A stretch of DNA of 64,000 bases from NCBI GenBank assembly GCA_035546615.1, contig DASZWM010000007.1, positions 1,451 through 65,450 on the forward strand. Reading direction: 5' to 3'. The position numbers and the translations under genes are program-made. The notes beneath the pieces are model-generated. The model saw nothing but the letters and a program-made list of their open reading frames with translations. It was not told where the DNA came from and did no database searches. The DNA comes from Minisyncoccota bacterium. GTDB lineage: Bacteria; Patescibacteriota; Minisyncoccia; Phycocordibacterales; SBAW01. Every line of letters begins with the position of its first letter. Positions within the stretch are counted from its first letter, which is position 1. Below, piece after piece: positions 3,001 to 64,000 of this stretch.

Positions 3001-6000
3001 ATGTCGACGGAAGTGACGGAGCCGTTGTAGATGGAGCCCACGTACAGGTACTTGCCCTGCACCGCGACCGAAGACCCCGAGCCGATAGGCGTGCCGGGGG
3101 ACGAGTACTGGCCCACGATAACGGGCGCCGCCGGGTTGGCGATGTCGACGATGTTGACCATGCCGGTGTCGAGGTTCGGCGCGTAGAGGTAGCGGCCGGA
3201 GAGCGCGAGCGAAATAGGATGGCCCGCGCCGGAGAGCGTGGAAACGAGGGTCGGTACCGCCGGGTTGGAGACGTCGATGATAACGAGACCCGCGGACGCG
3301 TCGCCGACGTACGCGTACTTGCCGGAGACTACGATGCTCTGCGCTTGGGTGGTGCCCGTGTAGGAGCCGACGAGCTTGGGGTTGCCCGGCTGGGTGATGT
3401 CGAGGATGCGCACGTTTCCGGCGGCAACGTAGGAGTAATGGCCGGAAGTGTTGATGCCGTATGAAGTCCCGCCGACTAAGGTCGAGGTCGCCAGGGTCGG
3501 CGTGCCGCTTGCCACCTGGAGTATATTGCCGCCCGCGACGGTGAGCTTCTGGGAAGGCGACGTGGTGCCGAAGCCGGCGAGACCGCCGAAGGACGCGATG
3601 CCCGAGTTGTAGAAGCCGGTCGTGGTGGCGTTGTCGATGGTCGCGCCTCCGACCACTTCGAGCTTGGAGAGCGTCGAGGTCGAGGTAAAGCCGATGAGCA
3701 CCTGGTCGGTCGCGGTCGTCAGGCGGATGCCCGAGCCGTTGAAGTGGGTCCAGTTGACGTCCGAGCCGGACGCGCCCGCGTCGGTGCCGCACTGGAATTG
3801 TCCGGTCGCGGAGTTCCATAGGAGCTTGTCGACCGAGCCGGAGCAGGAAGAGAGGTTGGCGCCGGTTATCCTGCCGTTTATGTACAGGTTCGTCGTGGTC
3901 GAAGTGCCGCTCGTAATGACATCGCCCGGGAAGGTATACACGCTCGAGGAATTGCCGCCGAAGGTTCCCGCCTGCGTGGTGATGACGCCGGTGGATGAGG
4001 TGTACGAGATGACCGACTGGCCCGAGAGGCTGGTCGAGGAGATCTTGTTGTTGAAGACGCTCCAGTCGGTATTTGTCAGGAAGCCCGGCTGGGAAGCGTT
4101 GGCCTTTTGAGCGCCGGCGTAGTCGATGGAGATAAGGCCGGCGCCGTTATCGTTGAAGTCGGACGAAGCGAAGGATGCGGCGCCCTTAGTGCTGCCGTCT
4201 GCCTTCGCGTCCTGAATGGAGAACGTGCCGGAGCTTGGGTTGTAGAACAGCGGCGCGGTGGCGTTGAGCGAGCCGGTCGTAACGAGGCCGAGGCTCGAGG
4301 TCGAGGTAAGCGTGTACGTACCATTGCTGTTGCCCACCAAAAGGTTTCCGTAGCTCGGAGGGGTCGAGAGTCCCGTGCCGCCGTAGATGACCGAGAGCGT
4401 CGACGTTGCCGACACGGCGCCGTTAATGGCCTGCAGGGGTCCGGTGATGTTGGAGATGGTTACGCCGCCGTTGAATGTGTTGCTGTTCGTAAACGTATTG
4501 CTGGAGTAGGTCTTCGGAATCGTGCTTGATGCGTCGACGAAATGGATAGCCGACGTGGTTGAGAAGAAATTGTTCTGCGTCTTCCAGTAGTCGGCCGAAC
4601 TGGTCGAGAAGCCGACGAGCGTCTGCTGGGAGAGGAAGTAAAGGGCTGATGTCGTGGAGAACGCCTGACCCTGATTGACAGAGAGGAAATATGAAGCAGA
4701 AGTCGTGGAGAAGAAATTATTCTGCGTCTTCCAGTAATCGGCCGAGGTGGTGGAGAACGAGTTCGCGAGGTAGTACGAGCCTTCCTGGCCGTCCAGCGTG
4801 CCCGTCCAGTCGCCCGCGCGGTCGAGCGTCAATGCGCCGCCGACATTCAGGAGGCCGGAGCCGGTGAGGTCGGTGAAGTACTCGGAGTTGAGACCCAGTA
4901 TCGCGGAGTACAGCGAGGTAGAGGTCGCGTTGGTGGTGGTGCCGAAGGTAACGGTGAGAGCGGAAATGGTCGACGACGAGTATGCGGTGAGGCCTGCGCC
5001 GAACTGCTGCAAGGCGGCCCAGGTATTCGAGTTCGAGAGGTTAAGGCCCCAATCGCTTATCCCCGCGCTGCCGTCATAGCTTGAGCCGGCGAGCGTCGCG
5101 TTGTGGGAAAGCGCGCTGAGGCTGGTGCCGAGCTGCTTGCCGCTGATGGTCGAGTTAGTAAGTCCCGCGTTATCGAGCGTGCCGGAAAGCGTAGGGGCGA
5201 ACGTGAATGCGCCGCCCGTGTTCGTTATCCTGATGCCGAGAGTCTGCCCGTTCTGCGTGAGCGTCGAGGTGGAAAGCGTAAGCGCGCCCGTCTGCGCCGT
5301 GCCGCCGCCGGTCTGCGAAAGCGACAGGACGCCGGTGTTTGAGATGACGCCCGTTGCGGGAACATAGCTGATGCCCGTACCCGCCGAGAGAGAAGTGGAG
5401 CCGAGCAGGCCCAGTGTGTTCGTGGCGGAGAGCGCGTAGCCGCCGGTGCCGTTCCCTACCAGAATGTTTCCGTACGACGGCGCTGCGGTCAGCCCCGTGC
5501 CTCCGTACAGGACGCCGACGGAAGAGGTTGCGGAAACTACGCCATTGATCGCCTGGAGCGGGCCGGTGAGGTTGGAGATAGTTACGCCGCCGTTGAAGGT
5601 ATTGGAATTCGTGAACGTGTTGGCGGTGTAGGTCTTCGGGATGGTCGTGGAAGACGTAACGAACCACATAGCGGAAGTGGTGGAGAAGAAGTTATTCTGC
5701 GTCTTCCAATAGTCTGCAGAGGTAGTCGAGAACGCAAGATTCTGGTTATTTGCTAGGAAGTAGAGGGCGGAGGTGGTGCTGAAGGCATTGCCCTGGTTCT
5801 GCGAGAGGAAGTATGCGGCGCTGGTGGTCGAGAAGAAATAGCCCTTGTCGAAGAGGCCGAGGGTGGAGGTGGAAAGGCGGCTGTTGAAGGAATTCCAGTC
5901 CGTGCTTGAGAGATAGCCGTCGGTCGAGCCGCCGGACTGGCTGATAGTGAAAATACCGGTCGAAGAGTTATAGGCGAGCGGCGCAAGTGCCGAGAGGCTG

Positions 6001-9000: not shown

Positions 9001-9179
9001 AATTCTCCAAGGGACTTCTCCTCGACGAACCATGCGCCGTTTATCTGCGAGCCGCGCAGCTTGCCGTCGCGCAAAAGGCGGCCGACATAGTCCTGAGCGC
9101 AGTTCATCCGCTTGGCGGCAGAACGGGCCGAGAGCATCGGTTCGCCTGAATTTGAGATGATTTGTTTAGCGGGTGACAT
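1..9179 (-). CDS. Giant repetitive cell-surface protein, N-terminal 3,059 codons (gene continues past window position 1; no stop codon in window). Domains: cytoplasmic excisionase/HTH_17-like module, single TM helix, Ser/Thr/Gly-rich repeat modules, 7-repeat LVIVD beta-propeller
   Basis: Reverse-complement translation from ATG 9179-9177 (MSPAKQIISNSGEPMLSARSAAKRMNCAQDYVGRLLRDGKLRGSQINGAWFV...) stays open and protein-like down to position 3. There is an in-frame stop upstream at 9309-9311. No ORF-track entry between 1 and 9200 lies in this frame, since the track lists only ORFs closed inside the window. All listed ORFs there are R/P/A/S-rich off-frame artefacts. Recurring motifs: VSATSSxGVxYGGTGLxxAPSYGNxLVGNxTGGYxL, tandem FSTTSAxYFLSQNQGNA units, and GKYAYVxDxSGxLVVLDVxNPAxP. 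Confidence 0.85.
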   Translation of the reverse strand, partial: MSPAKQIISNSGEPMLSARSAAKRMNCAQDYVGRLLRDGKLRGSQINGAWFVEEKSLGEFEAARAQAKLERASALAKERKLENETYRKANGLPAKKAVEADAVPSANGVASRFSSLLARNAVMALGGMLLFGAVAYAGAMHQREVAMQNQTTLAASLAQVESPFFGAHPLQFGFSLPAKSSPSVASDVFSQVFSFLFGPRVPAQYAAGTQTSPAYGPSAPVAAGTATTTIVQNSYPVYNTYPVTERLVQGSGVTEDILNLRLLALQNFLLPKIEAAALSPNPSHSHNGGGNSGGGNGSVTSVDASGGTTGLSFLGGPITSTGTFTLSGVLNAINGGTGTSTAPTYGQLLLGNSMGGYDLVSTSTLGIAAGGNPSWGNIVGTLSNQTDLQNALDSKLSLSAWYATTTDGLDEGATNLYFTPQNAQAYLDSIGKGYFFSTSSAAYFLSQNQGQAFSTTSAAYFLSLQSLSGFSTTSADYWKTARDFFSTTSSNYAVGAYISASSTVPHIGGGAFGDVLVWDGVKWAVTSTSTLGLGGSGGGSVTSVAANGGTTGLSFTGGPITSSGTLVLGGTLGVANGGTGTTTAPAYGQVLVGNATGGYDLVSTSSLGIMFGGTSTGFSTTSAEYWKSVSNFFSTTSTDYWKTQNNFFSTTSVAYFLAQNQGNAFSTTSAAYFLSQNQGNAFSTTSAEYWKSVSNFFSTTSASYFAAANGLLSTSSLSALAPLSYDGNTGVFSIAQANGSTNGYLSSSDWTLFNGKLGTTSISGSYPVQYNQTTGQFSLAFGTTTANAWSQLQQFNAASTSKLSVYQSASFGATATSTFSSTGALTLGGGLTLGSITGTTQCLRVNAAGVVSGTGSDCGTGGGGGSTTFLGLTDAPDTYVAGQIFFTNQAEDAVVGDNTFTFDGTTLNAPGAVFTTLTVLGSSNVGTVSTGVWHGSIVADAYVADNLTISNGTINSTPIGATTPSTAKFTNATSSSFFATSTRVLTSSTTLATIDSLYVSNLTGPLQAINGLVSATTSIGVVYGGTGLTLAPAYGQVLLGNSAGGYDLAPTSSLGFLTPASLSALAPLAYNSSTGIFTISQSGGSTDGYLSSTDWNSFNSRLSTSTLGLFDKGYFFSTTSAAYFLSQNQGNAFSTTSALYFLANNQNLAFSTTSADYWKTQNNFFSTTSAMWFVTSSTTIPKTYTANTFTNSNTFNGGVTISNLTGPLQAINGVVSATSSVGVLYGGTGLTAAPSYGNILVGNGTGGYALSATNTLGLLGSTSLSAGTGISYVPATGVISNTGVLSLSQTGGGTAQTGALTLSTSTLTQNGQTLGIRITNTGGAFTFAPTLSGTLDNAGLTNSTISGKQLGTSLSALSHNATLAGSSYDGSAGISDWGLNLSNSNTWAALQQFGAGLTAYSSSTISALTVTFGTTTNATSTSLYSAILGLNSEYFTDLTGSGLLNVGGALTLDRAGDWTGTLDGQEGSYYLANSFSTTSADYWKTQNNFFSTTSASYFLSVNQGQAFSTTSALYFLSQQTLVGFSTSSADYWKTQNNFFSTTSAIHFVDASSTIPKTYSSNTFTNSNTFNGGVTISNITGPLQAINGAVSATSTLSVIYGGTGLSTPPSYGNLLVGNSNGTYTLTSTSSLGLVTTGSLNATAPLFYNPSSGTFSIQDAKADGSTKGAASFASSDFNDNGAGLISIDYAGAQKANASQPGFLTNTDWSVFNNKISSTSLSGQSVISYTSSTGVITTQAGTFGGNSSSVYTFPGDVITSGTSTTTNLYINGRITGANLSSCSGSVDKLLWNSATGQFQCGTDAGASGSDVNWTHFNGSGIRLTTATDQVLIGFTSTSTLSKLEVVGGATIDNATTTGFYNSGIASFGGLAGFGTTSPSQKLTVAGGNILQVASGTPTLATSTLVGGTSYGINTSGHYSYVAAGNVRILDITQPGNPKLVGSYTGTTQAQSIVVSGKYAYVGDASAGLVIIDVSNPAVPTLVSTLSGAGHPISLALSGRYLYAPNLDTGMVNIVDIANPAAPVIVGQYSSPGTPIGSGSSVAVQGKYLYVGSIYNGSVTSVDISNPASPTAVYSYTGLSVPATLYASGRYLYVADASGGLYVLDISNPASISLAGSKTGTGYYTVEAAGDYAYVTDTSGNLVVLDVHNLASITSVGTFATGGNPRGLSLSGKYAYVTSNSSTVKVVDINGAKLPAANIGSLEVGVANIADNLNVGGDIYAQGGINVGISGIFSRGGLAVLGTTTLTDFVGRYSTTTTATTTGLAILGVRSALLTTNAQGSVVATSSLGVMYGGTGLSAAPSYGNILVGNSTGGYSLTATNTLGLLGSTSISATGPLSYNVSTGVFSISQSGGSTDGYLSSTDWNTFNSRLSTSTLALFDKGYFFSTTSANYWASTGGAFSTTSQDYYANAFRDWKIVGSGATAFLTPSSTVQSIGVFGSSTIGNGAAGGGLTVNGTATTTNLRVTSLTAGRVPFIGAGSQITDDSDFAFDSTNNTLTLNSVGANPTIYNQTSGNGVILKGDNVVGGGGQLRVVYNSGGWTGGGATATSTTYFQITNASNNNATFMGGTYGADTQLNRLQFNASSTQITDLNWTNTTVPISLFGLINSSAAKKVFTVQGASAQTADLAQFLNNAGTVLTRIDASGNFTTQQATTTNLAITSLLNTLLSTNANGSVISTTVSSPLSFSGNTLSIQQANGAQNGYLSSTDWTTFNNKISSTSLSATGPLSYNPSTGVFTISQSGASTDGYLSSSDWNSFNSRLSTTTLGLFDKGYFFSTTSALYFLAQNQGQAFSTTSAAYFLSVNQGNAFSTTSQNYYANTFRDWKIVAGALTPTTTLGIQVNASSTIGNGTLGLTVNGPATTTGRAYFSGNVGIGTSNPLAALQVSGGYGYFTSGITLNRDAHVTTNVDGSSDAGIYTPGGLNDLYLAVGSSNNVIAPAGNFGIGTTSPYSKLSVVGQVVAANYIATTSAQNVLPNLLSTNATTTSFGINNETFTDLTGSGLSNVGGVLTLDRTGDWTGTFDGQEGSYYLANSFSTTSAVYFLSQNQGNAFSTTSATYFLSLF
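2620..3480 (-). repeat. Seven tandem LVIVD repeats (beta-propeller) inside the giant gene
   Basis: Translated units read HYSYVAAGNVRILDITQPGNP / GKYAYVGDASAGLVIIDVSNPAVP / GRYLYAPNLDTGMVNIVDIANPAAP / GKYLYVGSIYNGSVTSVDISNPASP / GRYLYVADASGGLYVLDISNPASI / GDYAYVTDTSGNLVVLDVHNLASI / GKYAYVTSNSSTVKVVDINGAKL. Confidence 0.75.
8999..9134 (-). other. Excisionase/HTH_17-like helix-turn-helix module at the N-terminus of the giant protein (aa ~15-60), followed by a predicted TM helix at ~8762-8843
   Basis: LSARSAAKRMNCAQDYVGRLLRDGKLRGSQINGAWFVEEKSLGEF aligns with the excisionase-family HTH consensus (..AAelLgvsrstvyrlikeGklpaikiGgrWrirredLeaf). A hydrophobic stretch LLARNAVMALGGMLLFGAVAYAGAM follows about 50 aa later. 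Confidence 0.55.
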
Positions 9180-9485
9180 GTTGCCGAAAAAACTTTTGTT
9201 TGTGCGGAGAGTTCGGGTATTTCGTGTTTCAACAGAAGAGGTAGCGACCCGCCGATGTGCCGCTACCCTGTTACTAATTATTTTACGCGAGTGTCGCGCT
9301 TTTTCCGTCTATAATATGCGAAGAAAAATGTGGATATCTTATTGCACTGCAACGGAATTTTGAAAATTTATTTTCAAAAAATAATCAGCTTAAAATGAGT
9401 TTGCTGTTTAAAATTCCATGAAAAAATATTCGGCTTACATACCCTTTTCTCGTCTTAAAAATTGTATAGGAGAGATATGTTGTAA

Positions 9486-9554
9486 TCAAAAGCTACATCG
9501 GCTCTCCCATACGATATCTCGGATAACTTCTCGGCTAATCTCGGATAGCTTCAT
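9486..9554 (-). CDS. Possible 22-aa small ORF (MKLSEISREVIRDIVWESRCSF) preceded by a perfect AGGAGGT, in the AT-rich region upstream of the giant gene
   Basis: ATG at 9554-9552, TGA at 9488-9486. AGGAGGT sits at 9572-9566 with an 11-12 nt spacer, which is long. Too short for the ORF track. Confidence 0.15.
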   Translation of the reverse strand: MKLSEISREVIRDIVWESRCSF

Positions 9555-9600
9555 AATGCTATTTTACCTCCTAAGTATGCCGGAGGGGCAAAAAACCAAG

Positions 9601-9649
9601 TTCTAGTATTAAAAACGGCGTCTTTTGACAAGTTGTCAAACTGACGCCG
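9601..9649 (-). terminator. Rho-independent terminator downstream of the 279-aa HTH/TM protein gene
   Basis: Long hairpin cggcgtc-ttttgacaa-g-ttgtcaaa-ct-gacgccg (9616-9649), followed on the minus strand by UUUUUAAUACU. The loop region itself is a TTGACAAgTTGTCAA palindrome. Confidence 0.6.
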
Positions 9650-9688
9650 AATACTAAATAAAATATGAATTCGAAAATCTGACGCGAT

Positions 9689-10528
9689 CTAATGCAAAGA
9701 GTAGCCGACGCTTGCGGTCTTCCCCGCTTCTATGACCGTCGTTGAATTGACGAGCAGTGAGCTCAGCGCGACGACCGCGAACACGACGGCGCCGAGCGTC
9801 ATGATGCTGAATGCCGGCATGAGCATGCCGACGGAATATTTTTTTGACGGCGCGTATTCCGTTATTGTCACTTCCTCGTCCGCGTCCTCTTCTGCCGCTT
9901 TCGGCATGACCGACGCTTTCGCTTTTTTGCTTGCGGGCTTCTGTATTTCCGGCAGCGAAGGCGCCGCGTCTTCTATATAGCGCAGGCCCGTCTTTTTCTT
10001 TGTCTCCGCAAGGCGTATCGGGATATGTATAGATTCGCGCGCCGCTTCGGGCTCTATCTCCACAAAAACTTTTTCTTCCGCCTCTTCAACTTTTATTTCT
10101 TCAGGCGCGAAGTCTGCTATCAGCTCTTCCACTTGGATCGGGCGGCGGAAACTTTGTATCGGTTCCGGAATGACGGGAGCAGTCGCCTCAGCTTCGGTCT
10201 CCTCTTCTTCAGCTGTCTCTTCTTCTTTTTCCGCAGCCGGCTCCGGCTTCTCTTCCTCGGTCTCAGCGGGTTCCGGAACTTCTTCAGCCGCTTCGGCACG
10301 CACGACGGGCGCTACCGAAAGTATCTTCTTCGGCTCCTCCGCCGGCTTCGGGTTCTTGAGGTAGTCAGCCAGAAACTCGGCATCCACATACCAGGAGCGG
10401 CCCACTTTCTGGCCCACTATCTTTTTGGCGCGTATGAGCTGGCCGATATAGTCGGCATGGTATTTATACTGCTTTGCGGCAAGCCGAGTCGAGATATACC
10501 GCTTGCCCGAGATTTCCAGTTCGTCCAT
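9689..10528 (-). CDS. Tail-anchored membrane protein with N-terminal excisionase/HTH_17-like module, long acidic E/P/A-rich linker and C-terminal TM helix. Paralogous at the N-terminus to the giant protein
   Basis: ISGKRYISTRLAAKQYKYHADYIGQLIRAKKIVGQKVGRSWYVDAEFLADYL matches the same HTH-like motif as the giant protein. A low-complexity EEPKK/AEEE linker follows. C-terminal hydrophobic segment is MLMPAFSIMTLGAVVFAVVALSSLLV. Confidence 0.7.
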   Translation of the reverse strand: MDELEISGKRYISTRLAAKQYKYHADYIGQLIRAKKIVGQKVGRSWYVDAEFLADYLKNPKPAEEPKKILSVAPVVRAEAAEEVPEPAETEEEKPEPAAEKEEETAEEEETEAEATAPVIPEPIQSFRRPIQVEELIADFAPEEIKVEEAEEKVFVEIEPEAARESIHIPIRLAETKKKTGLRYIEDAAPSLPEIQKPASKKAKASVMPKAAEEDADEEVTITEYAPSKKYSVGMLMPAFSIMTLGAVVFAVVALSSLLVNSTTVIEAGKTASVGYSLH

Positions 10529-27244: not shown

Positions 27245-27280
27245 TAAAGGGCGGACCCGGTGGGTCCGCCCTTTTTATAT
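27245..27280 (+). terminator. Intrinsic terminator
   Basis: agggcggaccc-ggt-gggtccgccct followed by ttttatat. Confidence 0.6.
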
Positions 27281-27397: not shown

Positions 27398-28393
27398 ATG
27401 TACCAGAATCGGGAGATAAAAACGGCCCTTGTCCTGGGCGCCGGCGGCTTTATCGGCAGCCACCTGGTTCGCCGCCTCAAGAAAGAGGGCTTCTGGGTCC
27501 GCGGCGTCGACCTCAAATACCCTCAGTTCAGCATCCCCGAGGCCGACGAGTTCGTCCTGGGCGACCTGCGCGACCAGGCGGTGTGCCTCGGCGTGTTCGA
27601 CCGGCCGTTTGATGAGGTGTATCAGCTGGCAGCGGACATGGGCGGCGCCGGCTATATCTTTACCGGCGAGCATGATGCCGACGTCATGCACAATTCCGCG
27701 ACCATCAACCTCAACGCGGCGTACTACGGCCGCCAGGCGGGCGTGAAGAAGTTCTTCTACTCGTCCTCCGCATGCATGTACCCCGCCTACAACCAGGTGG
27801 ACCCGGACAACCCCAATTGCGCGGAAGACTCCGCGTATCCGGCAGCCCCCGACAGCGAGTACGGCTGGGAGAAGCTTTTCAGCGAGCGCCTGTACCTCGC
27901 CTTCAAGCGCAACTACGGCCTCAACGTGCGCATCGCCCGCTTCCACAATATCTTCGGCCCCGAAGGCACCTGGCAGGGCGGCAAGGAAAAGGCGCCGGCC
28001 GCGATATGCCGCAAGGTCGCTGAAGCGCCTCAGGGCAGCAGCATAGAGATATGGGGCGACGGCGAGCAGACCCGCTCCTTCCTATATATAGATGAGTGCC
28101 TCGAGGGCATGCGTCGCCTCATGGACTCCGAGTTCGAGGGCCCGGTCAACATCGGCTCCGACGAAATGGTAACCATCAACCAGCTGGCGCAGATGGCCAT
28201 GGATGCCGCCGGAAAACAGCTTTCCATAAAGCACATTGACGGTCCGCTCGGCGTGCGCGGCCGCAACTCGGACAACACGCTCATACGGCAAATGCTCGGC
28301 TGGGCACCGTCTGCACCGCTGCGTGAGGGTGTCGAGAAGACGTATCGCTGGATAGAACAGCAGCGCCTGCTCAATTCGATACGTCCCCGGTAA
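27398..28393 (+). CDS. gme: GDP-mannose 3,5-epimerase homologue (extended SDR), expected to form GDP-L-galactose/GDP-L-gulose
   Basis: Block-by-block match to plant GME: LAADMGGAGYI, KKFFYSSSACMYPAYNQ, RFHNIFGPEGTWQGGKEKAPAAICRK, IWGDGEQTRSFLYIDECLEG, PVNIGSDEMVTINQLAQ, GPLGVRGRNSDNTLIRQMLGWAP. Confidence 0.85.
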   Translation: MYQNREIKTALVLGAGGFIGSHLVRRLKKEGFWVRGVDLKYPQFSIPEADEFVLGDLRDQAVCLGVFDRPFDEVYQLAADMGGAGYIFTGEHDADVMHNSATINLNAAYYGRQAGVKKFFYSSSACMYPAYNQVDPDNPNCAEDSAYPAAPDSEYGWEKLFSERLYLAFKRNYGLNVRIARFHNIFGPEGTWQGGKEKAPAAICRKVAEAPQGSSIEIWGDGEQTRSFLYIDECLEGMRRLMDSEFEGPVNIGSDEMVTINQLAQMAMDAAGKQLSIKHIDGPLGVRGRNSDNTLIRQMLGWAPSAPLREGVEKTYRWIEQQRLLNSIRPR

Positions 28394-28416: not shown

Positions 28417-29238
28417 ATGCAAACCACGACCATCATCCAGCCCCGCAAGAAGCTGGGGCTCGCCGACCTGGCAGAGCTCTGGCGCTACCGCGAGCTGCTT
28501 TTTTTCTTTTCCTGGCGCGACCTTAAGGTGCGCTACAAGCAGACCGCTATCGGGGTGGCGTGGGCGGTGTTCCAGCCGCTGGCTACTATGCTTATCTTTA
28601 CCCTGTTCTTCGGGACGCTCCTCAAGGTCCCGTCCGACGGCATTCCCTACCCGATCTTCGTCTATACCGGCCTTCTGTTCTGGCAATTCTTTTCCTCGTC
28701 GCTTGGCGACGTCAGCGGCAGTCTGGTGTCCAACCAGTCCATCATCACCAAGGTCTACTTTCCCCGCCTCATACTGCCGCTTGCGGTCGTGGCGACCAAC
28801 TTCATCGACTTCTGCGTCGCCTCGGGCGTCCTGGTCGCGCTGATGGTCTATTACGGGTTCCTGCCCAACCTCATGGGCCTCTTCATACTGCCCGTCTTGC
28901 TGCTTATGACCTACTTCGCGGCGCTCGGCGGCGGCCTATTCCTTTCCGCGCTCAACGTGAAATACCGCGACGTGCGCTATATCCTTCCCTACTTCATGCA
29001 GATGCTCCTCTTCATCACGCCGGTCATCTACCCGGCCAGCATCGCGGGAAAGTACTCCTGGCTACTCGCCATAAACCCGATGACCGGCATCATCAAGGCC
29101 GCGCGCGGCGCTTTGCTCGGCACGGAGCCGGTCAACTGGGCGCTTTTGGGAATTTCTTCGCTCGCCATCCTCGTGCTCTTTGCCGTGGGACTTGTCGTGT
29201 TCAAGAAGACCGAGCGTTACTTTGCCGATATCGTATAA
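28417..29238 (+). CDS. wzm: ABC-2 type polysaccharide/O-antigen export permease
   Basis: 273 aa, six TM helices. RDLKVRYKQTAIGVAWAVFQPLATMLIFTLFFG. Confidence 0.9.
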   Translation: MQTTTIIQPRKKLGLADLAELWRYRELLFFFSWRDLKVRYKQTAIGVAWAVFQPLATMLIFTLFFGTLLKVPSDGIPYPIFVYTGLLFWQFFSSSLGDVSGSLVSNQSIITKVYFPRLILPLAVVATNFIDFCVASGVLVALMVYYGFLPNLMGLFILPVLLLMTYFAALGGGLFLSALNVKYRDVRYILPYFMQMLLFITPVIYPASIAGKYSWLLAINPMTGIIKAARGALLGTEPVNWALLGISSLAILVLFAVGLVVFKKTERYFADIV

Positions 29239-29260
29239 ACAAAAAGTTGAAAGTCAATTA

Positions 29261-29681
29261 TGTCCATAAAGTCAAAAGTCTTTAATGCCTGTACAGTGAG
29301 AGAAGGGATATGACCATAGAACGATTCGAGGACATACTTGCATGGCAGAAAGCAAAAGAGTTGACGCTTTTGGTATATGCGGCATTCAAGGATAATAAGG
29401 ATTACGGCTTCAGGGACCAGATACAAAGGGCCTGCGTTTCAATAATGAATAATATCGCTGAAGGTTTTGAAAGAAAGGGCGATAAGGAATTCAAACAATT
29501 CTTATACATTGCCAAAGGGTCCTGCGGAGAAGTCAGATCTATGTTGGACATCGCCCTGGGCTTGGCGTATGTAGATCAAGAGCACTATACGCGCTACCGC
29601 GATCTATCCGTCGACACTTCTAAATTGCTGTCGGGATTCATCAAGACGCTTTAGACATTCAACATTCTGACTTTATGGACA
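29261..29681. repeat. IVS-like cassette: 14-bp perfect inverted repeats TGTCCATAAAGTCA (29261-29274) / TGACTTTATGGACA (29668-29681) flanking a four-helix-bundle gene inserted between wzm and wzt
   Basis: Exact reverse-complement arms. The right arm contains the wzt ATG (29675). The ORF inside belongs to the family typically found in 23S rRNA intervening sequences. Confidence 0.6.
29310..29654 (+). CDS. Four-helix-bundle protein of the 23S rRNA intervening-sequence protein family
   Basis: 114 aa. ERFEDILAWQKAKELTLLVY..IMNNIAEGFERKGDKEFKQFLYIAKGSCGEV. SD AAGGGA 4 nt upstream. Confidence 0.75.
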   Translation: MTIERFEDILAWQKAKELTLLVYAAFKDNKDYGFRDQIQRACVSIMNNIAEGFERKGDKEFKQFLYIAKGSCGEVRSMLDIALGLAYVDQEHYTRYRDLSVDTSKLLSGFIKTL

Positions 29682-30931
29682 ATTTACCCATCATCGAGAT
29701 ACAGGGCATCGGAAAGAAGTATGACATCAACCACCAGCGCGGCGGCTATATCGCCCTGCGCGATGTGCTTGCGTACATGCTCAAGCGGCCGTTCAGCTTC
29801 TTCAAGGCAAAGGCCAAGCGCGCCGTCGGGTTCGATAAAAAGGAGGAGTTCTGGGCCCTGCGCGACGTATCGTTCTCGGTCGGAAAAGGCGAGGTAGTGG
29901 GCGTCATCGGCCGCAACGGCGCGGGCAAGTCGACGCTTCTCAAGATCCTGACCGGCATCACGCCGCCCACCGAAGGCCGGGCCGTCATGCGCGGACGCGT
30001 GGCGTCGCTGCTTGAGGTCGGGACCGGCTTTCATCCGGAGCTGACCGGCCGCGAGAACATCTTCCTCAACGGAGCCATCATCGGCATGACGCGCCGCGAG
30101 ATAGCGCGCAAGTTCGACGATATCGTCGCGTTCTCCGGCATCGAAAAGTTTCTCGATACGCCGGTGAAGCATTACTCAAGCGGCATGTACGTGCGGCTCG
30201 CCTTTTCGGTGGCCGCGCATATGGAGCCGGACGTCCTTATCGTGGACGAAGTGCTCGCGGTCGGCGACGCGGAGTTCCAGAAAAAGTGCCTCGGCAAGAT
30301 GGAGGAGGTGACCCGCTCCGATGGCCGCACGATACTCTTCGTGAGCCACAACATGGCGGCGGTCGCGGCCCTATGCAAGAAGGTTGTCGTACTCGAGCAC
30401 GGTACGGTAGCTTTTTACGGGCCGACGCACGAGGCTATAGACTTTTATATGAATCGGTTTACATCCGCCGCCGGCGGCGCTCCTGCCAGCTTCTCGCTCG
30501 GACCCGTACGCTTGGACAATTTTACCCTCAACGGCGCTCCGGCGAACGCAATACCGCAGATTGCCTCCGGCGAGCCTCTTTCGATAGGTGTCCGCGTTGA
30601 GAGCACGGATCCCACTGGCAGGCTCAATATCGGCTATGGCATCCGCCGGCGCAGCGACGCATCGCTCATGGTGTTCTCGCACGCAGACCTCGAAAGTGCT
30701 AAATTACCTTCTGCCTCCGGCATCATAGAAGCCCGGTTCGATATGCCGCGGCTCGCGCCCGGCGACTACATCGTGGAATTCCAGGCCAAATACAATGACG
30801 CGGCGGGCATCCCGGAAAAAGAGATAGGCGGGTTCACGGTGCCTGAAACGCGGGCCTTCAAGGCCGAGCAGACGTTTAGGGACTTTCCCTCCGCCGTATT
30901 GGCCAACTCGAACTGGAACCATATTCGATAA
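29675..30931 (+). CDS. wzt: ABC transporter ATP-binding protein for polysaccharide export, with C-terminal carbohydrate-binding (Wzt_C-like) domain
   Basis: Walker A GRNGAGKSTLLK, signature LSGGMYVRLAF, Walker B LIVDEVLAVGD, plus ~170-aa C-terminal extension. Confidence 0.9.
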   Translation: MDNLPIIEIQGIGKKYDINHQRGGYIALRDVLAYMLKRPFSFFKAKAKRAVGFDKKEEFWALRDVSFSVGKGEVVGVIGRNGAGKSTLLKILTGITPPTEGRAVMRGRVASLLEVGTGFHPELTGRENIFLNGAIIGMTRREIARKFDDIVAFSGIEKFLDTPVKHYSSGMYVRLAFSVAAHMEPDVLIVDEVLAVGDAEFQKKCLGKMEEVTRSDGRTILFVSHNMAAVAALCKKVVVLEHGTVAFYGPTHEAIDFYMNRFTSAAGGAPASFSLGPVRLDNFTLNGAPANAIPQIASGEPLSIGVRVESTDPTGRLNIGYGIRRRSDASLMVFSHADLESAKLPSASGIIEARFDMPRLAPGDYIVEFQAKYNDAAGIPEKEIGGFTVPETRAFKAEQTFRDFPSAVLANSNWNHIR

Positions 30932-30990: not shown

Positions 30991-33519
30991 ATGAAAAAGG
31001 CTCTTCTTTCTTTCTCGAAAAAGCATTTCGATCCTTCTGGTGAGGAGCAAGTCTTTTATGCTTCGAGCATGAGCATTATGATTGAGGGATTATACAATGC
31101 TCTCCGGAAAGCCGATTATGCGGTCGACTACATAGACTCCTGTGAAAATCCCAAGGGTCCGGGTCCCTATGATTTGTTTGTCGGTAATCTTACACGATGG
31201 ATGGATATCGCTTCGCAAAGCGAGGCGACTGTAAAGATCATCTTTATGGAAACCAGCCATCCGGTTAATCGCAACGAGCGCATGAAAGCATTGCGTGCAA
31301 GGTGGAACGTGCCACGAGACGAGGAATTGCTCGACACATCGTATACCGCACTACGCGCGTTCGAGCTTGCGGATTACGTTATACAGGTGGGCAACGGAGT
31401 CAATATGGACGCTCTTGTTGCTAATGGAGTGCCCCGGGACAAAATTATCCCTCTCCACTATGGTCTTCCGTTAGCATGGAACAAACACGACATTCTTGCG
31501 CGCGGCGCGCTGAATAGATATGTTCATACGGCTGCGGAAATGGGATTACGCAAGGGGCTTCAGGAACTGATAGGGGCGTTCGGCTCCCCTACGTTCAAGA
31601 ATATGTATCTGACTCTTATCGGGAACGTACGCAAAAAGGAGAACTACGCTTTTTGGAACTCTCGACTGGAGACTCTTAAGAAGGAAAATCCTGGTGTTGT
31701 GCACCTAGGATTTATCGACGCATCGTCGAGAAGATACTCCGAAATTTTGGCCGAACACGCATGGTATCTGTTCCCGTCGGCAGAAGAAGGCGAACCGGGA
31801 ACCGTACTGGAAGCGATGACTCTTGGTTTAGTGCCAATCCTGACGCGAGATAGTGGGATAGATTTCGCGCTCGATGGGAACTTTGAGGCTACGTTCAAGG
31901 AATCTCTTGATAAAACGCTTGCCATATCGAAAGAACAGTGGAGCATTCTCTCAGAAAAGGCCCGGCACTATATAATATTATTCCACGATCACGCCCTTTT
32001 TGAGAATCGGCTGGCCGAATTGTTCGGCAAGATAGCCGGTGGCGCGCGCGATTTGCGTCCTACCGCGAGCATTATACTGACTGTCCACGACAAAGAAAAA
32101 CATATCGTACGGCTGCTACAGACCCTTCTTACGAATACTCGCTCCTATCCTCACTGGGACCTACATATTATCTATGATGGCTGCAGCGACGCGTCGCGGC
32201 AAGTAGCGCAGGAAACCCTGAAGGACTTCCCTGTTACGGTATACGAGTATGAAACGCCTGACGTATGGGAAGTAAAAGCAAACAATTACGGTCTCAAGCG
32301 GGCGCAAGGTAAATATTGCGTCATTCTACAGGACGACAACTTCATATATGAAGAAGGGTGGCTCGAAAAGATGCTCTCTTGGCTCGAGGAGCACCCGAAG
32401 GTCGGCATATTAGGAGGCTTGGCAGGCGTAAACTTCTTCCATCTCGACTCCTCCGATCCGAAGGGCCCGGGGGTGAACCGCTCCGCATTCGAGCTTCACC
32501 AGCGACTCGACCCAGCAGTACAGATTGAACTGCGGGATTTCATCTTCGAAGTTGACGCGGTCATGCGCGGGCCAATCATCCTTCGGAAAGCTCTGCTTGA
32601 GAAGCACGGTTACTTCGACGAAACGTACGCCCCGCTCTACAACGACGACATGGACTACTGCTTCCGAATGCGGAGCCTTGGCTATGGGGTATTCTGCTAC
32701 CCCATCAATGTGGTGAACGAGAGCCTTACGGTGGCACAGTATAAGAACCCGGTAAAGGACAAATTCTGGAAAGATACGGCGGAAAAGAACCAGAAACTAT
32801 TATATAGGCGCTGGAGCGGAGATATAGAGAAATATCATGCGATCCAGATAAAAGTACCGAAACCCACCCTTGCAGCAGTCGGGGCTTTCCGGAAACAGCA
32901 TACGGCGCGTCTGCCCAGGCTCAACATGTATGATATTCGCGTGCGGTCCCGCGCCGCAGCCCGCGCGATGTTCCTGCGCCTGCCCGCTTCTTTGGTGCGC
33001 GGCCTGATTCAAACGCTAAGATACGCGGGAGGTCGCGGAATCGCGGAGAAGCTCCGCGTGCACTATTTCGAGGGTAAGACTATTCCGTGGCGGCTCGCAA
33101 ACGGCGATGCGAACCTGCGGGTCGAGTACCCACTCGCTTCCTCCTCGCTCATATACAGCATCGGCGAGAAAAACGCGCAATGGGCGGAAGTTATGCGGCG
33201 CCGGTACGGATGTATGGTGCGTACACTTGCCTCCTGGCCTGCCGTGACGGATGTGGGAAAAGACCTCGAAGCGCGCATACGAGGGCAGGGGGATATAGAT
33301 CTGCTGAGTCTCTACATGGATGGTGGAGAATACGAGCTCCTGGAAATGCTGCTTGATAGCGGCACGGTGCAGAGTATTAGGAATATCCAGATAAAATTCG
33401 ACGACAGCGCCCCCGACGCCATATCGCGCGTGCGTGCTATCCGCAAGCGGCTACGCGAGACGCACGCACCGACCTACCAATATGATTTCGTGTGGGAGAA
33501 TTGGGAAAGAAAGAAGTAA
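30991..33519 (+). CDS. Tri-domain glycan-biosynthesis enzyme: N-terminal GT4-like, central GT2 (DxD), C-terminal domain with weak FkbM-methyltransferase-like similarity
   Basis: 842 aa. GT2 block SIILTVHDKEKHIVRLLQTLL..DLHIIYDGCSDASRQ..YCVILQDDNFIYEEGW. C-terminus DIDLLSLYMDGGEYELLEML. Confidence 0.75.
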   Translation: MKKALLSFSKKHFDPSGEEQVFYASSMSIMIEGLYNALRKADYAVDYIDSCENPKGPGPYDLFVGNLTRWMDIASQSEATVKIIFMETSHPVNRNERMKALRARWNVPRDEELLDTSYTALRAFELADYVIQVGNGVNMDALVANGVPRDKIIPLHYGLPLAWNKHDILARGALNRYVHTAAEMGLRKGLQELIGAFGSPTFKNMYLTLIGNVRKKENYAFWNSRLETLKKENPGVVHLGFIDASSRRYSEILAEHAWYLFPSAEEGEPGTVLEAMTLGLVPILTRDSGIDFALDGNFEATFKESLDKTLAISKEQWSILSEKARHYIILFHDHALFENRLAELFGKIAGGARDLRPTASIILTVHDKEKHIVRLLQTLLTNTRSYPHWDLHIIYDGCSDASRQVAQETLKDFPVTVYEYETPDVWEVKANNYGLKRAQGKYCVILQDDNFIYEEGWLEKMLSWLEEHPKVGILGGLAGVNFFHLDSSDPKGPGVNRSAFELHQRLDPAVQIELRDFIFEVDAVMRGPIILRKALLEKHGYFDETYAPLYNDDMDYCFRMRSLGYGVFCYPINVVNESLTVAQYKNPVKDKFWKDTAEKNQKLLYRRWSGDIEKYHAIQIKVPKPTLAAVGAFRKQHTARLPRLNMYDIRVRSRAAARAMFLRLPASLVRGLIQTLRYAGGRGIAEKLRVHYFEGKTIPWRLANGDANLRVEYPLASSSLIYSIGEKNAQWAEVMRRRYGCMVRTLASWPAVTDVGKDLEARIRGQGDIDLLSLYMDGGEYELLEMLLDSGTVQSIRNIQIKFDDSAPDAISRVRAIRKRLRETHAPTYQYDFVWENWERKK

Positions 33520-59672: not shown

Positions 59673-61001
59673 TTATGTAACCTTCTCTGCGGCTTTATTG
59701 AACTGATCCCCGCGGTCATACTCGTTCTTGAACATGCCGAACGAGGCGAAAGCAGGGCTCATAAGCACAATGTCGCCATCCTCCGCGCCCTCTATGGCAA
59801 AGCCAACTGCTTCAGCCATAGTTCCATATATAGGACTGCCTGGTAACTCGCTTTTTACCCTCTCCGTACCGGTCCCCGCGAGCAGTAATACTTTCTTGCA
59901 GTACTTCGGGATCTCCGCAAGGAGCCCTTTCATTTCAAGGCCCTTATCCGCGCCGCCCATGATAAGCACGATGTTCTTTTTTGATTCATCTCCCAGCGCA
60001 TACAGGGCGGCAATAGTAGCCTCCGGTACCGTTGCCGTCGTGTCGTTGTAGATCTTCACTCCTTTTATTTCCCGCAGGAACTGAAGCCGCCCCGGAACCC
60101 CGTCGAACGACTCAATCGCCTTCTGTATAACATTCTCTTCAACTCCAAGCGCGCGGACAGCTGCGGCAGCAAGAGCCGCGTCATAGCGATTATGCTCGCC
60201 GGGAATCTTCAAACGCCATTCGGCGGGGATATCTTGCGTCCGCGCAATAACGGTACGAGCAAGGATCTGATCCTTAAACCCGTATTTTTTTGCATCCGGC
60301 ATTACTTGCTCGCCGAGAATAAGCACATCCTCCGGCTTTTGGAACAAAAAGATATTCGCCTTATCGGCGAAGTAGGCCGCCATATCGTTCTTGTAATAGT
60401 TCATATGGTCGGGCATGAAGGTGGTAAATACCGCCACATGGGGGCTTATCTTCGCCTCCCCGAGGCCCTGGCACTGCCACGAATCGAGTTCGAGTACGGC
60501 AGCGCTATCCGCTTGTACCTGCGGTAAAAGCGCGAGCGTCGAGACACCCTGCACGTTTCCGCCCAGAAGTACGCTCTTCCCTGCCTCCTTCAGGATATGG
60601 GCGATAAGATGCGTGGTTGTCGATTTACCGCGCGTGCCGGTAATGCCTACTGACGCGACACCCGAGAATTCCATAAAAAGGTCGGCGCTCATGCGCACGG
60701 GTACGCCGTTTTTCTTCGCCTCGGCGATAAACGGAGAATCGAGCGGCACGCCCGCCGCCTTGATAATAAGGTCGCGGTCTTTAAAATCTTCGAGACTGTG
60801 TCCGCCAAGGCGGAACGTTATGTTCGAAAACTGCTTCAGTTGCGCTAAAGAATCGGCAAGGTCCTCTTCTGATTTTAAATCGGTAACTACCAACTCCACC
60901 CCCTGTTCCGCTAGAAATCGCGCATCCCCCACCCCGCGGCCCAAAAGGCCGAGCCCCATGAGGGTTACCCGCTTGCCTTTGAAATAGTCTTTCCAATCCA
61001 T
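59673..61001 (-). CDS. murD: UDP-N-acetylmuramoylalanine--D-glutamate ligase
   Basis: MDWKDYFKGKRVTLMGLGLLGRG..GITGTRGKSTTTHLIAHIL. Confidence 0.93.
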   Translation of the reverse strand: MDWKDYFKGKRVTLMGLGLLGRGVGDARFLAEQGVELVVTDLKSEEDLADSLAQLKQFSNITFRLGGHSLEDFKDRDLIIKAAGVPLDSPFIAEAKKNGVPVRMSADLFMEFSGVASVGITGTRGKSTTTHLIAHILKEAGKSVLLGGNVQGVSTLALLPQVQADSAAVLELDSWQCQGLGEAKISPHVAVFTTFMPDHMNYYKNDMAAYFADKANIFLFQKPEDVLILGEQVMPDAKKYGFKDQILARTVIARTQDIPAEWRLKIPGEHNRYDAALAAAAVRALGVEENVIQKAIESFDGVPGRLQFLREIKGVKIYNDTTATVPEATIAALYALGDESKKNIVLIMGGADKGLEMKGLLAEIPKYCKKVLLLAGTGTERVKSELPGSPIYGTMAEAVGFAIEGAEDGDIVLMSPAFASFGMFKNEYDRGDQFNKAAEKVT

Positions 61002-61006
61002 ACTAT

Positions 61007-61093
61007 TGGTGCCCAGGAGAGGACTTGAACCTCCATTCCCTTGCGGGAACTACGACCTGAACGTAGCGCGTCTACCAATTTCGCCACCTGGGC
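61007..61093 (-). tRNA. tRNA-Leu (anticodon CAG), 87 nt with long variable arm and encoded CCA
   Basis: RC reads GCCCAGGTGGCGAAATTGGTAGACGCGCTACGTTCAGGTCGTAGTTCCCGCAAGGGAATGGAGGTTCAAGTCCTCTCCTGGGCACCA. Acceptor is 7 bp, anticodon loop TTCAGGT. Confidence 0.9.
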
Positions 61094-61745
61094 ATGACCT
61101 GATTATACGCAAGGAATTCCTGATCTTGAGGTACTTCCTGCGCAAGTGAGGCAGTGGTGTAGTGTAATACATGCCCTGTGCGAGCACAATCGCTTCTTTC
61201 TTCGCGTACCTCAGTTGTACGTACGACTTGCCCGTATACCCTCCGACCGAACCACGTATACGCAACAGTCGCGTTATCTTTGCGCGGAACCAATCGACGA
61301 AGATCGGGCTTGCCGAGGTAAATGATATGTAAAACCGATAACTGTTCTTAAAGACAGGATCGTAATAGGAATAACTGCATCCGTCCCCGTCGAAGTATCC
61401 TCGCGCAAAGTCCATAAAGTACACATCGGGCACCGCTACTGATTCAAGCGTTTTCGACTTTGCCGGCGTCAGGCCTATGCCCAGAAGGAACCGATACAAA
61501 AGCACATCGCCGAATTGGGTACAATACGCCATATCGCCGCTGCCCGAGTACTTTTTCGCGGTCTTTGTCTTGATACCCAGGCATTTTTTAAAAAGAGAGA
61601 TCTGTGCCTTGTCGGTCGAGGTCAGGCTGATATGCCGGCCGTCTTTTGATAAGCAGCCGTCGGCGGTTAGCAAGCCTACCGCATATGCAAAATCTGAAGA
61701 CCATCTGCGTTTTGCTTTGCCTACCGGCTTAGGACCCCTTTTCAT
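61050..61745 (-). CDS. LAGLIDADG-family homing endonuclease (two motifs, single-chain), free-standing. Its 3' end overlaps the 5' half of tRNA-Leu
   Basis: YAVGLLTADGCLS and FARGYFDGDGCSY. 231 aa. The last ~15 codons are encoded by tRNA sequence. Confidence 0.75.
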   Translation of the reverse strand: MKRGPKPVGKAKRRWSSDFAYAVGLLTADGCLSKDGRHISLTSTDKAQISLFKKCLGIKTKTAKKYSGSGDMAYCTQFGDVLLYRFLLGIGLTPAKSKTLESVAVPDVYFMDFARGYFDGDGCSYSYYDPVFKNSYRFYISFTSASPIFVDWFRAKITRLLRIRGSVGGYTGKSYVQLRYAKKEAIVLAQGMYYTTPLPHLRRKYLKIRNSLRIIRSCPGGEIGRRATFRS

Positions 61746-62926: not shown

Positions 62927-62999
62927 TGCGCGCTCTAGGGATCGAACCTAGGACCTTTCGAGTATCAGTCGAATGCTCTACCAACTGAGCTAAGCGCGC
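62927..62999 (-). tRNA. tRNA-Ile (anticodon GAT)
   Basis: RC reads GCGCGCTTAGCTCAGTTGGTAGAGCATTCGACTGATACTCGAAAGGTCCTAGGTTCGATCCCTAGAGCGCGCA. Cloverleaf is fully paired, anticodon loop CTGATAC. Confidence 0.92.
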
Positions 63000-63614: not shown

Positions 63615-64000
63615 AATTTGAATCATTCCACGAGCAGCTTCCGCTACCCGTGCCTTGTTACGACTTACTCCCTGTCACCGAGCTTACCGTGAACCCACTT
63701 GCGTGGATCTTCGGGTGCTCCCGGCTCCCTTGAGTTGACGGGCGGTGAGTACAAGACTTGAGAACGTATTCACCGCGGTATAGCTGACCCGCGATTACTA
63801 GCGATTCCGGCTTCATGAGGTCGAGTTGCAGACCTCAATCCGAACTGAGCACTCGTTTCAAGATTTGCTCCGGGTTACCCCATTGCGTCTCGTTGTCGAG
63901 TGCATTGTATCATGCGTGCAGCCCAGGATATCAGAGGGACATGCTGATCTGGCGTCATCCTCACCTTCCTCCCCCGTGAGGGGGCAGTCTCGCCTGACAT
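63615..64000 (-). rRNA. rrs: 16S rRNA gene, 3' ~390 nt (E. coli ~1175 to 3' end). Continues beyond the window end
   Basis: RC contains GGAGGAAGGTG..., GAATCGCTAGTAATCGCGGGTCAGC, GTGAATACGTTC, CTTGTACTCACCGCCCGTC, AAGTCGTAACAAGG and helix 45 with GGAA loop (CACGGGUAGC-GGAA-GCUGCUCGUG). Confidence 0.9.

Follow-up and report, generated by a model that had tools for sequence, protein, structure and literature searches.

A probable mobile cassette of the intervening-sequence type between wzm and wzt in an operon of a Minisyncoccota bacterium

Intervening sequences (IVSs) of rRNA that carry an open reading frame (ORF) were discovered in 1993 (10.1101/2024.02.27.582315; PMC4990558) and are known in 23S and 16S rRNA (Leptospira, Coxiella burnetii) and in rRNA genes of the candidate phyla radiation (CPR) (PMC4990558; 10.1101/2024.02.27.582315). 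In C. burnetii, the S23p ORF lies in the loop of a 28-bp terminal stem that is cut by RNase III (PMC4990558). The PF05635 family has been termed uncharacterised (10.1101/2024.02.27.582315), is homologous to Avd (PMC10053308), and has members reported with cas operons, for instance between cmr3 and cmr2 (PMC3936711, PMC10910872). Here we describe a PF05635 gene in a stretch of 64,000 nucleotides from a Minisyncoccota bacterium of the CPR (Candidatus Paceibacterota; assembly GCA_035546615.1, contig DASZWM010000007.1, positions 1,451 to 65,450 of the forward strand; hereafter the window), where it sits in a 436-nt insert between wzm and wzt. We conclude that this insert is probably a horizontally acquired, selfish cassette of the IVS type, a PF05635 gene between inverted tandem-repeat arms that occupies the wzm–wzt spacer in sense orientation.

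The cassette and rRNA IVSs have in common a PF05635, or S23p, gene in the loop, a closing stem made of terminal complementary sequences, low GC relative to the host, and a sporadic, horizontally transferred distribution (PMC4990558; 10.1101/2024.02.27.582315). The differences are that the window cassette lies between two protein-coding genes of an mRNA operon and not in an rRNA helix, that its arms are tandem 7/9-nt repeats of which the right one runs over a start codon, and that its stem has 14 bp against the 28 bp of Coxiella. Because an IVS by definition lies inside an rRNA gene (where it replaces the tip of a helix, 9, 25 or 45 of 23S rRNA) and this element does not, we call it IVS-type and not an IVS. 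Two other hallmarks are present, namely a bordering complementary stem, perfect over 14 bp here and detectable in most homologues, and a sporadic distribution with the composition of a transferred gene, seen in presence and absence among Wzm relatives, in GC content at third codon positions (GC3), and in copies of 86.8% nucleotide identity across phyla.

Correia elements, or NEMIS, of Neisseria offer a second comparison: they are short elements with terminal inverted repeats (IRs) that insert in spacers and are co-transcribed, and their RNA hairpins are cut by RNase III and affect the fate of the mRNA. They have no ORF, make a TA target duplication, and are restricted to one genus. Our cassette resembles them as an apparently co-transcribed inverted-repeat insertion in an intergenic spacer, and the ORF-less hairpins of its family, described below, are analogous; unlike them, the PF05635 family carries a conserved gene, is spread over many phyla, and showed no duplication in one paralog pair. 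An integron gene cassette was rejected, as the arms lie on both sides of the ORF in place of a single 3′ attC and the neighbours are housekeeping operon genes, with no search aimed at an integrase. The features of the insert and its two host genes are as follows.

28417–29238, + strand: wzm (ABC-2 permease, ABC2_membrane, PF01061, E 7e-17), host gene 5′ of the insert
29239–29674, + strand: inserted cassette, 436 nt, GC 0.42, from the nucleotide after the wzm stop to the one before the wzt ATG, defined by the wzm–wzt gaps of relatives and by the GC/GC3 contrast
29243–29279, + strand: left arm array, four degenerate AAAGT-containing units (AAAAGTT, GAAAGTC, CATAAAGTC, AAAAGTC)
29260–29313, + strand: putative upstream ORF (uORF) read from the sequence, 17 codons, starting (ATGTCC...) within the left arm and overlapping the four-helix-bundle start as ATGA
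29261–29274, + strand: left IR arm TGTCCATAAAGTCA, perfect over 14 nt, with imperfect pairing on to 29287
29310–29654, + strand: four-helix-bundle protein gene (PF05635/TIGR02436, ‘23S rRNA intervening sequence protein’, from profile searches), 114 codons, 345 nt, intact
29668–29681, + strand: right IR arm TGACTTTATGGACA, one ACTTT unit that holds the wzt start codon, with imperfect pairing from 29656
29675–30931, + strand: wzt (ABC ATPase with ABC_tran and Wzt_C, from a profile search)

The first-pass annotation had placed a 345-nt ORF of the rRNA-IVS family between wzm and wzt, and profile searches bear this out. The ORF matches PF05635 with E 1.1e-32 (112.9 bits, cutoff 33.8) over profile positions 1–106 of 106, and TIGR02436 ‘four helix bundle protein’ with E 5.9e-31 (106.9 bits, cutoff 24), and the cassette protein is on these matches a member of PF05635/TIGR02436. 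It is similar to the solved structures 2GSC (XCC0516, a pentameric four-helix bundle; E 2.9e-13) and 2RLD (E 7e-5), and it keeps all 16 subfamily-invariant residues, including R40-x3-S44-x3-N48-x2-E51. These four residues are invariant or near-invariant across 41 aligned members, and the leading G of the GxxRxxxSxxxNxxE motif of Lin et al. and Zhang & Ye, as quoted in PMC3936711, is Q37 in this subfamily. A PADLOC search returned no relatives.

The same annotation held that wzm and wzt are normally contiguous, and their relatives agree. We compared 80 metagenomic loci with Wzm identity of 62–74%, in 66 of which wzt could be located. In about 50 of the 66, the two genes overlap or lie at most 56 nt apart (range −8 to +56 nt), a typical uninterrupted junction being TAAAAAAATATGG; the closest relatives (L089 and L090, 74%) have overlapping genes and no insert. 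Fifteen loci carry inserts of 394–1455 nt at the junction, and three of these inserts (L112, L115, L153) are PF05635 cassettes with AAAGT/ACTTT arms, whose ORFs stand at 65–69% against the window ORF, with similar divergence of Wzm (~67%). The nearest homologue of known genomic context (75%, Parcubacteria GW2011_GWA1_40_21) is found in the same NUDIX–epimerase–wzm–wzt synteny, where it occupies the preceding junction, epimerase–wzm, and the wzm–wzt junction holds a PemK gene. In L001–L008 the homologous cassette lies directly 3′ of the epimerase gene. Vertical conservation of the ORF at this position, which would have spoken against an insertion, was not found: the closest Wzm relatives lack the insert and the 75% homologue is elsewhere.

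Composition also sets the insert apart. GC falls from ~60% outside to 42% over the 436 nt, and GC3 of the cassette ORF is 0.55, against 0.77–0.84 in its neighbours and a mean of 0.72 ± 0.08 for the long ORFs of the window. This contrast is consistent with gain from a low-GC donor followed by partial amelioration. The wzm gene, the cassette ORF and wzt are all on the + strand, and position 29675 is taken as the real start of wzt because the N-terminus that it gives, MDNL-PIIE, agrees with the M-x-x-PIIE of relatives.

The 14-bp perfect IR that had been reported around the ORF is confirmed (29261–29274 / 29668–29681), as is the place of the wzt start codon, whose ATG at 29675–29677 falls inside the right arm. 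The left arm TGTCCATAAAGTCA and its exact reverse complement are the sole two occurrences in the window, even with two mismatches allowed. With one mismatch the repeat reaches 17 nt, and over 29261–29287 / 29656–29681 it pairs in 23 of 26 columns; the alignment score is 8.5 standard deviations (SD) over shuffled flanks. The 14-bp core has a ΔG of about −20 kcal/mol and closes the minimum free energy fold of the region. The 14-mer contains GTCCATAAAGTC, the canonical unit of the family, which occurs verbatim in other loci (e.g. L013, L022, L028), and the arm score of the window, 32.5, is near the family median of 35. There are four units on the left and one on the right: the right arm is decayed to a single unit and the copy is partly decayed, with the 14-bp core (23/26 when extended) left. 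The true right end of the cassette may extend to ~29687, where GACTTTATGGAC..AATTTA is like the family terminus ...GACTTTATGGACTTTTAACTAATTTA; as the whole end, GACTTTATGGAC-AATTTA-CCC, resembles that terminus, the first four codons of wzt (MDNL) may be cassette-derived. The ATG of the uORF at 29260–29313 is inside the left IR arm, and its translation would unwind the stem.

If the window insert belongs to a mobile family, its arms should recur in related insertions, and they do, as arrays. We scanned one genome per species, which gave more than 500 relatives, and took the best 80 (58–75% identity). Their hosts are Patescibacteria, Bacteroidota, Spirochaetota, Gammaproteobacteria, Bdellovibrionales, Omnitrophota and Bacillota, and nearly all of them are flanked by tandem arrays of short units, ...GTCCATAAAGTCTATAAAGTCAAAAGTC... 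on the 5′ side and its reverse complement ...GACTTTATAGACTTTATGGACTTT... on the 3′ side. Array statistics were taken over 78 non-redundant loci, which are species representatives and phylogenetically non-independent; the counts rest on the 5-mer AAAGT/ACTTT only, and shuffles were mononucleotide. On these terms, AAAGT occurs at 36.6 per kb in the 120 nt upstream and ACTTT at 28.3 per kb downstream, against a background of ~2 per kb at the same loci, with at least two units on both sides in 61 loci and a spacing of 7 or 9 nt between successive units. A unit-agnostic alignment of the upstream flank with the reverse complement of the downstream flank gives an IR with z > 3 in 66 loci, and the inverted alignment outscores the direct-orientation one in 64.

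The two arms also change together. Cassettes with AAAGTC upstream have GACTTT downstream, and those with AAAGTT have AACTTT (r = 0.82; 2 × 2 table 19/1/2/38; Fisher p = 2e-12). In members that are more distant, other units appear in the same layout: GAAAGG/CCTTTC (L064, L070), GGGAAAA/TTTTCCC (a Nostoc plasmid) and AAGGTTY/RAACCTT (Riemerella). Judged from these alignments, what is conserved across the family is complementarity and polarity rather than the sequence of the unit. In addition, hairpins without an ORF, in which an AAAGT array abuts an ACTTT array, are found at L013 2375–2444, L016 1519–1586, L051 2880–2964, L047 6493–6568, L060 5643–5761 and L112 904–1066. They occur in genomes that also hold full cassettes and may be miniature or decayed derivatives. 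At L115 2811–2997, 23 AAAGT units run over 187 nt 5′ of wzm as a one-sided array, and a partner arm was not detected.

Arms and ORF behave as one unit. Two paralogs in one metagenome-assembled genome (MAG; L012 and L029, 88.7% nucleotide identity) can be aligned between the left array, AGTCGAAAGT..., and the terminus ...GACTTTATGGACTTTTAACTAATTTA (or ...AACTAATTTA) and nowhere beyond, their flanks being unrelated. The termini of the cassette are inverted, AGTYRAAAGT / ACTTTYRACT. In these two ORFs (4001–4345 in each), ATA and ATT replace the ATG start, and L029 has an in-frame TAA; they appear to be decaying copies with their arms kept. Across phyla, the cassette ORFs of a Spirochaetota MAG (L035 4001–4351) and a Bacillota MAG (L037 2742–3095) are 86.8% identical in nucleotides, which suggests either a recent inter-phylum transfer or a binning artefact. 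The polarity of the arrays relative to the ORF is reversed in both.

Within the 78 loci, the cassette is co-directional with both flanking genes in 62, and the gaps to its neighbours (median ~50 nt) are occupied by the arrays. The neighbours, called with a simple longest-ORF caller, are operon partners of unrelated function: S7 and EF-G (rpsG and fusA; three genomes), ABC ATPase and permease pairs, wzm/wzt, pheS/pheT, release factors and aminotransferases. The purine-rich arm is 5′ of the ORF on the sense strand in 69 loci (p = 4e-12), and so strong a sense polarity suggests that tolerance, at the least, depends on the transcript. The right array starts inside the conserved C-terminal codons ...K-T-L-stop (AAA ACT TTA TAA), and the next gene starts at most 12 nt past the last unit in 30 of 62 loci, often after a terminal ...AACTAAT motif. 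A start codon in the last unit does not hold as a general rule, since just 11 of the 62 have it within 3 nt. Rfam returned nothing at E ≤ 10 at the window cassette and only tRNAs at 19 homologous loci, so those 19 cassettes are not in rRNA.

Two features mark the beginning of the transcription unit in which the window cassette is found.

27246–27274, + strand: strong bidirectional terminator-like hairpin, 13-bp stem with nine GC pairs and a T tract, upstream border of the transcription unit
27398–28393, + strand: NAD-dependent epimerase/dehydratase (PF01370, E 1e-42), first gene of the operon

As a terminator stands 5′ of the epimerase gene and no promoter or terminator consensus was found inside the cassette, we consider the cassette to be embedded in an epimerase–wzm–wzt–glycosyltransferase transcription unit. 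It would be co-transcribed with the operon and have no promoter or terminator of its own. In the transcript, the arms would pair and the ORF would be looped out as in an rRNA IVS, bringing together the end of wzm and the start of wzt, whose ATG would be supplied or overlapped by the last repeat unit. In long-armed relatives (30–75 paired columns), the stem would be a plausible substrate for RNase III. In the window copy, ribosomes that finish the cassette ORF, with its stop 20 nt 5′ of the wzt ATG, would melt the stem and let wzt be translated, and the uORF also runs through the left arm. From this arrangement, translation of wzt by way of a ribosome-melted stem is most likely, and is favoured over obligatory cleavage.

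Collectively, absence from most relatives, the arm architecture of the family, residence in operons and arm-to-arm paralogy identify the insert, probably, as an IVS-type mobile cassette resident in an mRNA, as had first been proposed from the window alone, and the arms in relatives, the uninterrupted wzm–wzt pairs and the GC3 of 0.55 all support that proposal. We read the cassette as a parasite that the host tolerates and whose composition is partly ameliorated, in preference to a regulator built for that purpose; it is an unexceptional and somewhat worn copy within a large family.

Several observations weigh against this. The window stem, at 14 bp against the 28 bp of Coxiella, is marginal for RNase III, typical substrates of which have ~20 bp. 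No target-site duplication is evident at the L012/L029 boundaries, the one paralog pair; no recombinase was found; no relatives were found among IMG/VR and GenBank phage contigs; and a search of the window for further copies leaves a single cassette in 64 kb (a weak tblastn match at 60264–60356 is inside murD and was dismissed as chance). Folding of the whole region as RNA shows no stability beyond that of shuffles (z = −0.96), a score that tells nothing here, the fold being dominated by the 345-nt ORF. In the arm alignments, G·U-type and A·C-type mismatches are equally common (80 vs 73, p = 0.63), with no RNA-specific excess, so selection specifically on the sense RNA is not demonstrated; the test is low in power because the register is ambiguous in repeat arrays. 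Finally, partial GC amelioration together with an intact conserved ORF could mean long residence and some benefit to the host.

The lack of an RNA-level mismatch signal keeps alive an alternative that is compatible with a selfish cassette, in which the arms work as DNA in a mobility step. They would be terminal inverted arrays of binding sites, comparable to the ends of Tn7 and Mu, read by the four-helix-bundle protein or by a host factor to move or maintain the cassette, and the RNA stem would be incidental. Equal numbers of the two mismatch types are what duplex DNA would give, and the units are lineage-specific with co-varying arms. The unit is also specific to the family of the cargo: in similar hosts and at a shared wzm–wzt junction, PF05635 has AAAGTY and PDDEXK_3 has ATACGAAT. 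The L012/L029 paralogs have exactly the arm-to-arm unit in common. The weak similarity to Avd (phrog_3206, E 0.002) points the same way, as Avd is nucleic-acid-binding. However, a symmetric DNA element does not predict that the purine-rich arm is 5′ in 69 of 78 loci or that the cassette is sense in operons in 62 of 78. Moreover, ORF-less hairpins persist, the protein is a 114-aa helical bundle without a known catalytic or DNA-binding motif, and target-site duplication was not seen. We regard a DNA role of the arms as possible, with the balance tilted clearly away from it.

An adaptive riboregulator is a good deal less probable again. Here the stem would hide the wzt start, and Wzt output would be set by RNase III cleavage or by translation of the cassette ORF, thereby tuning the Wzm:Wzt ratio or glycan export. 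The layout would allow this: the wzt ATG is paired in the 14-bp stem, which could be opened either by the left-arm uORF or by the ORF stop, 20 nt ahead of the ATG, the downstream start is within 12 nt of the last unit in about half of the family, and the ORF is intact and conserved. Against such a role, most relatives couple wzm and wzt by direct stop–start overlap with no insert, the same junction takes unrelated cargo (PemK, AbiEii, NYN, DUF4143 ATPase, PDDEXK_3), and the cassette family resides in operons of unrelated function.

That the ORF is an ordinary accessory gene of the glycan cluster, vertically inherited and flanked by a fortuitous 14-nt IR, is largely refuted and now very improbable. 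The ORF is intact, and a PF05635 gene is at this junction in 3 of 66 Wzm relatives with a divergence (65–69%) like that of Wzm (~67%), yet the IR is 8.5 SD over shuffles and is the canonical unit of homologous cassettes, the closest Wzm relatives have no insert, GC3 is 0.55 against ~0.8 in the neighbours, and the nearest ORF homologue of known context is at another junction. A remnant Avd accessory gene of a diversity-generating retroelement (DGR), suggested by the homology of PF05635 to Avd (PMC10053308), the DGR accessory pentameric four-helix-bundle protein of like fold, and by the weak phrog_3206 match, is rejected as scarcely credible because no reverse transcriptase was found, either among the ORFs of at least 200 aa scanned within ~12 kb (SecA, MurB, Wzy_C, UDP-glucose dehydrogenase, glycosyltransferases and methyltransferases) or in the commonest neighbour families of the 78 homologous loci, and the window gene, unlike Avd, stands alone with its own inverted arms and no template or variable repeats nearby.

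The spacer between wzm and wzt is a hotspot at which small or selfish genes of unrelated kinds insert. Apart from the three PF05635 cassettes, the junction inserts are PDDEXK_3 genes, a PemK toxin, an AbiEii pair, NYN-domain proteins and a DUF4143 AAA ATPase, and further ones are ORFs read as methyltransferases, of which one was scanned and had no Pfam match. Inserts that are neither PF05635 nor PDDEXK_3 occupy the gap in L109, L116, L117, L134, L135, L158 and L166, and also at L001 4233–4667. No inverted arms were seen at those whose flanks were read (e.g. the NYN genes). The PemK gene of L109 is flanked by two ACTTT arrays in direct orientation.

The PDDEXK_3 genes (PF13366, ‘GxxExxY’-type) occur at wzm–wzt in other CPR genomes, at L114 3819–4304, L121 3641–4174, L131 3810–4324 and L147/L150 3813–4339. 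Like the window cassette, they are small sense ORFs at this junction between inverted tandem-repeat arms and make up a second protein family with an arm–ORF–arm architecture; they differ in their PD-(D/E)XK nuclease fold and in the arm unit, ATACGAAT / ATTCGTAT. It is conceivable, and we put this forward tentatively as somewhat short of an even chance, that PF05635 and PDDEXK_3 genes are the cargo of widespread mobile ‘operon intervening sequences’, of which the rRNA IVS would be the rRNA-resident special case. Such elements would have arms of inverted, lineage-specific 7–9-nt tandem repeats and would enter, in sense orientation, both the tiny spacers of co-transcribed genes and rRNA helices; they would do no harm because paired arms loop the cassette out, through RNase III processing or melting by ribosomes, and the downstream gene is given its start codon. 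The repeat arms might in turn be recognised by the four-helix-bundle protein that they flank. We found no description of such elements, of the repeat arms or of operon-resident cassettes in the open-access literature, and an earlier description is possible.

Among small orphan genes, those of PF05635 rank with the commonest in CPR, Bacteroidota and cyanobacteria. Co-varying arms, sense slots in essential operons (S7 and EF-G, ABC transporter pairs) and ORF-less derivatives together give a concrete model of the nature of these genes, of how IVSs spread and of the tolerance of operons for insertions in spacers of 5 nt. Where PF05635 genes have been reported in ‘association’ with cas operons, this may simply reflect an operon-invading habit and not a CRISPR function, and the wzm–wzt hotspot can confound the annotation of glycan clusters.

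Elsewhere in the window, two more segments are compositionally atypical: the gene for an 842-aa dual glycosyltransferase 3′ of wzt (30991–33519), with GC3 of 0.59 against ~0.8 in its neighbours, and positions 9001–10000, with 47% GC. As to rRNA, the window has just the 3′ end of a 16S gene (63616–64000, − strand), and no 23S gene follows it there. After the 16S 3′ end on the − strand come a tRNA (62927–62999) and a 231-aa LAGLIDADG_3-like ORF (61050–61745), the end of which overlaps a second, unusually long tRNA call (61010–61093) just upstream of murD. This region may be a further selfish element or an intron-encoded endonuclease. Within the LAGLIDADG-like ORF, 11 nt agree with the cassette repeat unit (GTCCATAAAGT), and an 8-nt inverted partner pair, GCAAAGTC / GACTTTGC, is ~40 nt apart (sites 61410–61420 and 61453–61460). 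This is possibly coincidental, with a chance expectation for the 11-mer of ~0.03 per window.

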